Shown here piece after piece: positions 20,636 through 22,288 of a stretch of 46,253 bases of DNA. This stretch comes from Pseudogymnoascus verrucosus (lineage: Eukaryota), in NCBI GenBank assembly GCA_001662655.1, contig KV460238.1. One strand, 5' to 3'. The notes under the pieces were generated by a model. The model was given only the letters and a program-made list of their open reading frames with translations. It had not been told where the DNA came from and did no database searches. Numbering within the stretch: the stretch's first letter is position 1; the number at the start of each line of letters is the position of its first letter. Position numbers and translations under genes: made by a program.

Positions 20636-22288
20636 CTACAGCTTACAAGTCGAAGAACGCGCCCAATCACATGTCTTGAGGTTATCATTCCACGACAGTC
20701 CCTGTCCGCACGCGTATTTATACGGCGTGCCAGTCTTCCCGTCGCCGTTCACAAAGCATAGATAGAAATGACTGCAGCTCTCAGGATCTGGGTATCTGCA
20801 GTCTTTCGGGCCCTTGCATTTGGTCTTGGTGATGTCTTGGGTGGGACAGGTGAAAGCGGCGCCGGTGTGGACGTCGTTGGACTCTTCTTGCTTCGTCTGC
20901 GACCCCGGCCAAATCTGTGCCATAGCCTCTTCAATCCCCTTCCCAACATCCCCAAGCGTCTTCTGCATACACGTCGACCTCGACCTATCATCACACTCCT
21001 TAATACCCTCGTTCCACTCAAAGTCCCTCGGGCAGTGCACCACAACCGGCGTGCCTGTCTTGCCCCCGGCGTCGACGTTGCACTGGATGTACTCATTGCA
21101 ATAGCCGGGTCTGGCGTAGACGCAGTCCGTGTGGGCGGCACATTTAGTGCGGATGATATCTGCGGCTGGGCACTTGAAGACGAGGGGTTCTTCCTTGGCA
21201 GCACGGCGGTTTGGTGCACCGCCGTTCCTGAGGACATCTTCGAGGCCGTTTGTAACTTCACCGATGACAGTTCCTGGGCACCCTGCTCCTGTGCATGTGA
21301 GCTTATCCTTCGATTTGGCTTCAAGAGTATTCTTCTCCGTGGTCGCATTCACAGGGCACGTCGATTTCTCTGGGACATCGCACTTCTTCTCTTTATTGTT
21401 CCACTCATGGCCAGGAAGGCAGTCCTTGATGACCGGAGTGCCTGACATAAGGTTCGAGCCCGCGCTGCACTGGATGAAGGTGGTGCAACTTCCGGGGTTC
21501 GGGTACACGCAGTCCTTTGCGCCGCGACACTGGGTCAACATGATGTCCTTCATTGGGCATTGGAAGGGAGCGGGGTCGCGGGTATAAGTGCGGGCACCAT
21601 CGCCTCGAGGTAAAATGCCGCCGACCTCCTTAAGAAAGCCACCAGCCATTGGGTTCACGGCACTTTTCTTCGGGCACGTCGAGTTCTCCTGGGAGTCGCA
21701 TTTCTTTTCCTTGTCGTTCCACTCGAGATAACCATCAGCAGAATTAGGACATCCCTTTTGCGTCACAACGACCGTCTTCCCATCAGCTCTCCAATCGCAT
21801 TGGATGTAATTCCTGCAGTTCTTAGGTTCTGGGTACATGCAGCCGTTCTGACCTTTGCATTTGCCGCTGGTAAAGTCTGCGCTGGGGCACACGAATGGTT
21901 CATCGCGGATCTTATTCTTGACAACACCATCACGTTGAGGTAAAATTTTGCTGGCCCCGTGAAGAACGCCATTAACCGCCTTGTCCACGCCAGCTGTTGC
22001 TGAGCACGTCGATTTCTCTGGGACGTCGCATTTCTTGTCATTGTTGTTCCACTCGAGATAGCCAGTGGTAGATTTAGGACATGTCATGTAAGTTCGTGTA
22101 GTCGACTGCCCGTCGGCGCTCCAATCGCAATGGAAGTACGCGCCACAGTTATCAGGATCTGGGTACGTGCAGGCGTTCTGTACTTTGCATTTGCCGCTGA
22201 CGAAGTCTTCGCGCGGGCACGCGAGGCGATCCTGGGCTGCGGAAAGGTGCAAGAGGGCCGGCACGACAAGAAGGCTGAGGAAAAGCAT
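20636..22288 (-). CDS. Secreted protein with five tandem chitin-binding type-2 (CBM14/peritrophin-A, Avr4-like) domains
   Basis: Signal peptide followed by five modules of the form CP..D...tkC.g..dC.YP.P..C..yiqC.....p....Cp.g.eWN...K.CD....STC, each with 8 Cys. Confidence 0.9.
   Translation of the reverse strand: MLFLSLLVVPALLHLSAAQDRLACPREDFVSGKCKVQNACTYPDPDNCGAYFHCDWSADGQSTTRTYMTCPKSTTGYLEWNNNDKKCDVPEKSTCSATAGVDKAVNGVLHGASKILPQRDGVVKNKIRDEPFVCPSADFTSGKCKGQNGCMYPEPKNCRNYIQCDWRADGKTVVVTQKGCPNSADGYLEWNDKEKKCDSQENSTCPKKSAVNPMAGGFLKEVGGILPRGDGARTYTRDPAPFQCPMKDIMLTQCRGAKDCVYPNPGSCTTFIQCSAGSNLMSGTPVIKDCLPGHEWNNKEKKCDVPEKSTCPVNATTEKNTLEAKSKDKLTCTGAGCPGTVIGEVTNGLEDVLRNGGAPNRRAAKEEPLVFKCPAADIIRTKCAAHTDCVYARPGYCNEYIQCNVDAGGKTGTPVVVHCPRDFEWNEGIKECDDRSRSTCMQKTLGDVGKGIEEAMAQIWPGSQTKQEESNDVHTGAAFTCPTQDITKTKCKGPKDCRYPDPESCSHFYLCFVNGDGKTGTPYKYACGQGLSWNDNLKTCDWARSSTCKL

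Follow-up and report, generated by a model that had tools for sequence, protein, structure and literature searches.

Five tandem Avr4-type CBM14 modules in a secreted-type protein of Pseudogymnoascus verrucosus: an ordered array with divergent chitin-contact sites

Locus and protein architecture

[quoted passage not shown] The gene is a single intron-free open reading frame (ORF) of 550 codons plus stop, starting at the first ATG downstream of an in-frame stop (stop-to-stop frame 20636..22300). A 99% identical protein of the same length is recorded as 'hypothetical protein V499_03934 [Pseudogymnoascus sp. VKM F-103]'.

An initial annotation of this locus had described a signal peptide followed by five eight-cysteine modules without a catalytic domain, a description that ORF, cysteine pattern and Pfam search all bear out (Table 1). 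The N-terminus, MLFLSLLVVPALLHLSAA followed by QD, is signal-peptide-like as judged by eye, without a predictor. In a Pfam search of the 550-residue product one family exceeded its cut-off, CBM_14 (PF01607), which matched in five stretches with 90.3 bits where 22.1 were required (E 8.5e-26); no catalytic domain was found. Five modules follow from the cysteine spacing, and a hidden Markov model (HMM) built from the family's own modules recovers all five nearly in full. Forty of the 42 cysteines belong to the modules, eight to each, and two lie in linker 3. Modules 1 and 2, singled out initially as the closest pair, are 58% identical, against 37–48% for the remaining nine pairs; the example sequence quoted in the same annotation is module 5. 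Net charge of the modules ranges from -2 to +2, and the four linkers measure 38, 38, 61 and 40 residues. The C-terminal KL is conserved; on inspection it offers neither HDEL/KDEL nor a hydrophobic tail, and retention in the endoplasmic reticulum or a glycosylphosphatidylinositol anchor was set aside. Judged from sequence and model, the product is of secreted type, non-catalytic and cysteine-knotted, has a mass of ~58 kDa minus signal peptide, and is laid out like 'beads on a string', with five independently folded modules and four flexible linkers.

Table 1. Features of the five-module gene and of its surroundings in the window. Residue letters are given for the positions equivalent to CfAvr4 sites 69/84/100/102/103; module types are explained in the text.
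Feature	Coordinates	Strand	Residues	Details
Complete single-exon coding sequence, five-module CBM14 protein	20636..22288	-	550 residues	ORF reading and 99% identical 550-residue database protein
Putative signal peptide	22235..22288	-	1-18	Hydrophobic core, SAA/QD; by eye from sequence
Module 1	22004..22219	-	24-95	Type B, 8 Cys; H/M/K/D/V
Linker 1	21890..22003	-	96-133	LPQR at 116-119 (21932-21943), fits LxxR Kex2-type motif
Module 2	21674..21889	-	134-205	Type B; Q/K/K/D/S
Linker 2	21560..21673	-	206-243	ILPR at 225-228 (21605-21616)
Module 3	21356..21559	-	244-311	Type C; Q/K/K/D/V; Q69 and K84 equivalents retained
Linker 3	21173..21355	-	312-372	Cys pair CTGAGC 332-337 (21278-21295); dibasic NRR 360-362 (21203-21211)
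Module 4	20969..21172	-	373-440	Type E; Q/V/E/D/D
Linker 4	20849..20968	-	441-480	No candidate basic site
Module 5	20645..20848	-	481-548	Type F; L/Y/T/D/W; followed by C-terminal KL
Ribulose-phosphate 3-epimerase gene	19272-20406	+		Convergent neighbour; GT..AG introns 19756-19840, 20092-20145
Protein kinase gene	starts near 23070			Neighbour
Cytochrome P450 gene	1292-2389	+
ERG4/ERG24-family sterol reductase gene	3493-4560	-
FAD-binding squalene-epoxidase-like ORF	6663-7304	-

Avr4-type sequence and predicted fold of the modules

Avr4, the textbook case of a fungus masking its own chitin, is known from leaf pathogens, where it consists of one domain. The two top phmmer matches of the window protein among PDB sequences were PfAvr4, aligned with module 5 (4z4a, E 3.5e-17), and CfAvr4, aligned with module 3 (6bn0, 'Race-specific elicitor A4', E 3.2e-16), with chitinase CBM14 domains far behind. 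An AlphaFold2 model of the full-length protein, for which 13 family members were aligned, gave block-mean values of the predicted local distance difference test (pLDDT) that lie mostly at 60–89 in the modules and below 50 (23–49) in every linker; each modelled module opens with a helix. Foldseek against the PDB likewise put 4z4a at the top (TMt 0.91, root-mean-square deviation 1.1 over 74 columns), 6bn0 in second place (TMt 0.88) and CHIT1, Der p 23 and tachycitin well behind; EHEP (8in3) was also among the matches. All eight cysteine columns align with CfAvr4 in all five modules; the CfAvr4 disulfides are C40-C70, C50-C56, C64-C109 and C86-C101 (PMC6128652, here and below from partial text of that study). 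Since the same two structures lead by sequence and by predicted fold, we assign the modules to the eight-cysteine Avr4 kind of CBM14, with an N-terminal helix and an extended A2–A3 loop, in agreement with the initial annotation.

Avr4 effectors are the nearest relatives of the gene by descent: they too are secreted, share this CBM14 variant with its helix and loop, reach 43–47% identity and TM 0.83–0.91 with single window modules, and have Asp102, Lys99 and Trp92-Asn93 in common with them. Against the definition of Avr4 as a small single-domain secreted plant-pathogen protein that Cf-4 recognizes, however, the window protein has 550 residues and five modules, its organism-named family members all come from Pseudogymnoascus rather than from leaf pathogens, and its modules differ at sites 100 and 103. 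In a tree of 133 modules over 68 columns (11 of 129 inner branches starred, weakly resolved at depth), they also fall outside the small CfAvr4 clade. The gene is thus not a member of Avr4 in the strict sense, failing at Trp100 and in architecture.

An ordered set of module types in Pseudogymnoascus

A word-indexed similarity search in near-length and shorter-length bands returned eight and five clusters, of which six and three, respectively, carry organism names, in every case Pseudogymnoascus, a genus of cold-soil and cave fungi. By these comparisons all organism-named full-length members of the family belong to this genus. Homologues with conserved module types come from at least nine named Pseudogymnoascus sources, and the P. 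destructans member is the 479-residue VC83_04226.

Identity to exemplars and position in the tree sort the Pseudogymnoascus modules into six types, A–F. Window module 3 falls in type C with support 95, module 4 in type E with 98 and modules 1 and 2 in type B with 80–82, and module 5 groups with C-terminal modules of other species (87–90). The window protein accordingly reads B-B-C-E-F, P. destructans (P0007) A-B-C-F, WSF 3629 (P0005) A-B-B-C-F, 05NY08 (P0003) A-C-D-E-F, 03VT05 (P0004) A-B-C-D-E and F-4281 (P0008) A-C-F-F-F, with two of its three F copies identical; shorter members read A-C, C-E or C alone. Module number varies within the family, with four in P. destructans and five in P0001, P0003, P0004, P0005 and P0008. 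The order A<B<C<D<E<F holds in all main-family proteins, and the divergent P0009 and P0018 allow no clean typing. Because this order is fixed and modules group with same-position modules of other species, the comparisons show an old ordered module set with lineage-specific losses and duplications. Stepwise internal duplication, as first suggested for the whole array, applies to the B-B pair, the only duplication in the window gene and one common to two other proteins, but not to the other modules, which are old distinct types grouping by position across species. Of the 14 Pseudogymnoascus proteins typed, 12 contain type C, the most conserved type compared, and every invariant column of the family alignment falls within module 3 or right next to it.

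Two further observations concern the family's composition. The 618-residue P0004 of Pseudogymnoascus sp. 03VT05 breaks off 11 residues into the linker that leads to type F in other species; this gene model is probably truncated, and the complete protein may carry all six types, A-B-C-D-E-F. A second, divergent Pseudogymnoascus family (P0018, P0161-P0163 and P0009; 450–492 residues) combines full modules with degenerate half-modules that have lost cysteines.

Ligand-contact residues

The chitin site of CfAvr4 has been dissected with (GlcNAc)6, whose main contact is CH-pi stacking on Trp100, the counterpart of Trp94 in PfAvr4. W100A and D102A each abolish (GlcNAc)6 binding and the protection of Trichoderma germlings from chitinase, Q69N and K84A raise the dissociation constant ~20-fold, and Y103F, M51A and P53A have little effect; chitin chains are held sandwiched between two monomers (PMC6128652). 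According to the discussion of that study, Trp465 of CHIT1, crucial for chitin binding by that domain, aligns with CfAvr4 Tyr103. Alignment of the window modules to these sites is straightforward: module 5 aligns with PfAvr4 without gaps across the ligand-residue region, and the sole gap between the remaining modules and CfAvr4 is the two-residue hairpin gap known between CfAvr4 and PfAvr4 (PMC6128652).

Asp102, Lys99 and Trp92-Asn93 are retained in all five window modules, Gln69 in three and Lys84 in two (Table 1). At site 103 an aromatic residue stands in one of the five window modules, in 16 of the 44 others from Pseudogymnoascus, in 7 of the 11 from mites and in 47 of the 71 from unnamed sources. 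Type F has Trp there in eight of nine copies and Tyr in the ninth, so module 5, aligned to the CHIT1-Trp465/CfAvr4-Tyr103 site, retains the canonical CBM14 aromatic; types B, C and E have an aromatic at neither site 100 nor site 103. Across the 133 Avr4-type modules a site-100 aromatic is found in eight, namely CfAvr4 and seven unnamed ones, and six of these eight make up part of the small CfAvr4 clade. On sequence grounds, chitin binding is plausible for module 5 and open for modules 1–4, and for none of them can it be transferred from Avr4.

Linkers between the modules

The shared linker motif ending in arginine, described initially, is confirmed. In the conserved pattern a short amphipathic segment leads to I-L-P-R, and, after a spacer that varies, R-D-A-A-P-x-F stands right before the first cysteine. 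Kex2-like arginine sites are present in three of the four window linkers: LPQR conforms to LxxR, NRR is dibasic, and ILPR combines an aliphatic P4 with Arg at P1. Motifs of such classes (LxxR, KR and RR) serve to define effectors with a Kex2-processed pro-domain (K2PP), and Kex2 favours an aliphatic P4 (bioRxiv 10.1101/2020.05.27.120113, partial text). Where window linker 4 has no basic site, two relatives (P0003 and P0010) carry KRR. The ILPR arginine is invariant in all nine orthologous pre-C linkers, although mean pairwise identity over nine proteins is 53% for this linker versus 78% for the type C module, and the linker element stands directly behind the signal peptide, in a pro-peptide-like position, in P0006, P0013 and P0014.

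Among 29 inter-module linkers of 10 family proteins, an aliphatic-x-x-R or dibasic motif occurs in 22, compared with 16.0 +/- 2.5 in 2000 shuffles, of which 32 reach 22; the sequences are related and share a single homologous motif, so that the counts are not independent. Dibasic sites taken by themselves show no enrichment (8/29 vs 9.3 in shuffles). Seven linkers have no candidate site, among them window linker 4, those of 13 residues in P0008 and those of 108 residues in P0003 and P0004.

In composition the window linkers are not mucin-like, their Ser, Thr and Pro fraction being 0.13–0.21, against 0.76 and 0.57 in two long linkers measured in multi-module relatives, the mite protein P0027 and the unnamed P0020, respectively. 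The spacer of linker 2 varies in length while its bordering motifs are kept: P. destructans is without eight residues between LPR and DAAPF, and at this place (21572) a close relative in sequencing run X7 is missing 21 bases in frame. An RGD in linker 2, the only one in the window protein, was considered as an adhesion motif and rejected, the P. destructans linkers reading LPRGNS and LPREDA with no RGD.

Relatives beyond Pseudogymnoascus

An exhaustive HMMER search of 1.84 billion representatives gave 274 matches at E <= 1e-3, and the details that follow come from the best 150 of these. The family-module HMM splits the matches into near-full eight-cysteine modules scoring at least 45 bits and partial matches of 16–35 bits in long six-cysteine peritrophin-like proteins. 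Five modules occur only in Pseudogymnoascus, in the five proteins named above; outside the genus the maximum is three near-full Avr4-type modules, or four with a truncated one, and the closest count belongs to a set of partial Oppiella nova proteins. Names were sought for 30 matches and an organism was given for 12, which comprise Fulvia fulva Avr4, the second Pseudogymnoascus family (450 residues), oribatid mites, Adineta steineri and one gammaproteobacterial metagenome-assembled genome (MAG). The weaker matches include long proteins with up to 20 matched stretches, which resemble animal peritrophins and EHEP in their tandem CBM14 arrays and are presumably animal proteins. Their modules differ from those of the window in having six cysteines, the window linkers differ from peritrophin-like mucin spacers, and the ligand of EHEP is phlorotannin rather than chitin (bioRxiv 10.1101/2023.06.04.543649, here and below from partial text).

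Three oribatid mites (Oppiella nova, Oppia nitens and Medioppia subpectinata) and a bdelloid rotifer, Adineta steineri, also possess Avr4-type eight-cysteine modules. The relatives of this mite and rotifer type (P0015, P0019, P0027, P0033, P0037, P0043, P0054, P0058 and P0064) are 39–55% identical to the window protein over the matched stretches, and some are multi-module proteins with mucin-like linkers. The contig that bears the Oppia nitens genes measures 15.6 Mb, and that of the rotifer gene 778 kb. This distribution suggests transfer between soil fungi and soil micro-animals; the module tree is too poorly resolved to relate the Pseudogymnoascus types to modules of mites, rotifers or Dothideomycetes or to give a transfer a direction. 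A literature search found no paper joining Avr4 with oribatid mites. In the gammaproteobacterial MAG, a 337-residue 'choice-of-anchor P family protein' (P0048/P0169) carries one C-terminal Avr4-type module (102 bits with the family-module HMM), which could reflect bacterial acquisition or a binning artefact; the unnamed 334-residue P0056 resembles it.

Genomic context and expression

Beyond the neighbours in Table 1, the gene-dense surroundings include calpain, TrkH, P450s and sterol-related genes. One P450, the ERG4/ERG24-family reductase and the squalene-epoxidase-like ORF lie within ~6 kb and may form a sterol or terpenoid gene group.

Contigs of four sequencing runs from relatives were compared with the gene, parts without coverage being uninformative. 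Contigs of run X20 are joined across both GT..AG introns of the epimerase gene, so this run contains RNA-derived sequence; one 217-base X20 contig lies inside the five-module gene (21073-21289), as do two 151-base contigs of run X19 (20683-20833 and 21695-21844). Both runs are probably RNA from close relatives, and their contigs give a weak hint of transcription. In P. destructans, transcript GG4455, automatically labelled 'Race-specific elicitor A4', was recorded at 5–867 fragments per kilobase per million on six bats with white-nose syndrome; supplementary file 9 equates it with the 479-residue L8G0G3 (100% identity over the full length), with four CBM_14 matches and a positive SignalP call (PMC4591128, here and below from partial text). 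Because its length and domain positions match P0007, L8G0G3 is by sequence the orthologue of the window gene. The Avr4 resemblance had thus been recorded earlier by automatic annotation. Among the titles and abstract openings listed, we found no paper on the architecture or binding residues of this family or on multi-module fungal Avr4, none naming VC83_04226 and none joining Pseudogymnoascus with CBM14; a search on the P. destructans secretome and chitin binding gave only an unrelated review.

Proposed function and alternative explanations

The explanation that we favour, with about an even chance of being right, is that the protein is secreted and works extracellularly as a multivalent lectin directed at a cell-wall polysaccharide. 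Its most likely ligand would be the chitin of the fungus's own wall, with anchoring mainly through the C-terminal type-F module that bears the canonical CBM14 aromatic, and avidity-based coating or cross-linking of the wall would hinder chitinases of soil microbes, grazers or hosts. Modules 1–4 have Asp102 and, in part, Gln69 and Lys84; because they lack both aromatic stacking residues, they may bind chitin weakly, bind it in another mode or recognize another ligand. Trimming of the arginine-ending linkers by a Kex2-type protease would be an optional addition, since the data do not require release of five units.

The nearest functional analogy is provided by secreted, non-catalytic tandem chitin-binding arrays that guard hyphae from chitinases, namely VnaChtBP with its six CBM18 domains, the CBM18 proteins of Batrachochytrium and LysM effectors (bioRxiv 10.1101/462499, partial text). 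Their folds are unrelated (CBM18 hevein-like, CBM50 LysM), and their binding has been demonstrated by experiment, whereas the window protein is known from its sequence and a model. Another parallel is the expansion of CBM_14 proteins in Pyronema confluens, a non-pathogenic ascomycete with 13 small secreted CBM14 proteins without other domains (PMC3778014). These are mostly 80–140 residues long and encoded by clustered genes, in contrast to the fused modules described here; the authors speculate that they protect against soil microbial attack and that they originated by transfer from arthropods (PMC3778014).

Several observations weigh against a lectin acting on wall chitin. Trp100, essential in both CfAvr4 and PfAvr4, is absent from all five window modules, and no aromatic stands at this site in any of the 49 Pseudogymnoascus modules, these five included. 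Type C, the best conserved and most widespread type, is without an aromatic at sites 100 and 103 in 12 of 12 copies (Lys100 and Val103 each in 10 of 12), and selection on it therefore appears to maintain something other than the known chitin-stacking residues. Nor does the CBM14 fold alone guarantee chitin binding. PfAvr4-2, a CBM14 paralogue from Pseudocercospora fuligena with Arg and Gly at the two sites, binds de-esterified pectin and not chitin (PMC8104879, here and below from partial text), and EHEP of Aplysia, with three peritrophin-A domains, binds phlorotannin instead of chitin, which Der p 23 does not bind either (bioRxiv 10.1101/2023.06.04.543649). The neighbouring genes, finally, are housekeeping genes that offer neither a chitin-related nor an effector-type context and no functional hint; together with the restriction of organism-named family members to Pseudogymnoascus, this makes the term 'effector', used in the initial annotation, a loose one.

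These points bear most heavily on the literal form of the earlier proposal, in which all five modules bind chitin in the manner of Avr4 and constitute a five-valent shield or cross-linker. The Avr4-type fold and cysteine pattern of every module and the conserved Asp102 and Lys99 would fit it, and tandem modules could mimic the two-monomer chitin sandwich of CfAvr4 (PMC6128652). Because W100A by itself abolishes CfAvr4 binding and protection (PMC6128652), and because site 100 reads K, K, K, E and T and site 103 V, S, V, D and W in modules 1–5, the modules do not follow Avr4 as closely as had been stated and a five-fold shield cannot be derived by homology; we regard it as improbable. The same residues could instead mean that most or all modules have come to recognize a polymer other than chitin, for example a different wall glycan, a polysaccharide of a host or substrate, or a polyphenol, an alternative that we consider rather unlikely. 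It would account for the absence of both stacking aromatics from modules 1–4 and of Trp100 throughout, for the 78% identity of type C in spite of that absence and for the precedents of PfAvr4-2, EHEP and Der p 23, EHEP also being among the structural matches. It has to contend with Asp102, the other essential residue, in every module, with Gln69 and Lys84 in type C, with the Trp at the CHIT1-type site of module 5 and with the fact that 125 of the 133 Avr4-type modules have no site-100 aromatic, whose absence may be ancestral rather than a loss. PfAvr4-2 itself, although an Avr4-family CBM14 protein similarly devoid of the two stacking aromatics, is a single module with 10 cysteines and a positively charged pocket containing Arg84 and Gly87 (PMC8104879). 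The window modules, by comparison, have eight cysteines and are near neutral, and their net charge does not support basic polyanion-binding modules of the PfAvr4-2 kind.

A polyprotein precursor, also raised in the initial annotation, is compatible with the wall-lectin explanation and in our view unlikely. Here a Kex2-type protease would cut after the linker arginines in the late secretory pathway; the products would be separate Avr4-like lectins of 8–12 kDa that differ in type and bear a short extension at the N-terminus. Sites of K2PP-defining classes in three of the four linkers, the invariant ILPR arginine in less conserved surroundings, the recurrence of the element behind signal peptides, the motif count above shuffled expectation and the predicted flexibility, and hence accessibility, of the linkers make such processing possible, as does the analogy of layout with K2PP effectors and Kex2-processed repeat proteins (KEPs), whose repeat units have disordered segments ending in LxxR, KR or RR. 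The idea is weakened by the unenriched dibasic sites, by the shared ancestry behind the motif count, by the siteless linkers, window linker 4 among them, and by the Pro at P2 of the mostly I-L-P-R sites, which is unlike the usual Kex2 preference. Pro-Arg sites are cut in yeast killer toxin. KEPs release short peptides and are not known to release folded eight-cysteine domains, and in the window protein processing is represented by candidate motifs. A decaying gene or a chance frame, by contrast, is hardly credible given the intact 550-codon frame with all 40 module cysteines, conserved-type homologues in at least nine named Pseudogymnoascus sources, the transcribed P. destructans orthologue (PMC4591128) and, as a weak hint, the short contigs from the two probable RNA runs.

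A more far-reaching picture, which we think improbable, would combine several of these elements in a modular 'lectin cassette'. Six ordered, diverged Avr4-type modules would be mixed by loss and duplication among Pseudogymnoascus species and cut at conserved arginines into a cocktail of small lectins; type C would be the strictly conserved core, which has lost both stacking aromatics and binds a ligand new to CBM14, and the module type would have moved horizontally among soil fungi, fungus-grazing oribatid mites and bdelloid rotifers.

Implications

The Avr4 module, known as a single-domain protein of leaf pathogens, is here built into multi-module proteins of Pseudogymnoascus, a genus that includes the agent of white-nose syndrome in bats, whose orthologue is expressed in lesions (PMC4591128). 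Automatic 'Avr4' or 'chitin-binding' labels on these genes should not be taken as demonstrated function. Most worth pursuing are the possible new ligand of some modules and the fact that mites and rotifers have modules of this type too. Should chitin shielding hold true, such self-defence would rank as a broad ecological trait that extends beyond plant pathogens, directed against the chitinases of microbes, grazers and insect-eating hosts. Should it not, as the missing Trp100 makes possible, the family would amount to a naturally occurring set of Avr4-fold modules whose specificity has changed, useful for learning how CBM14 modules choose their ligands.

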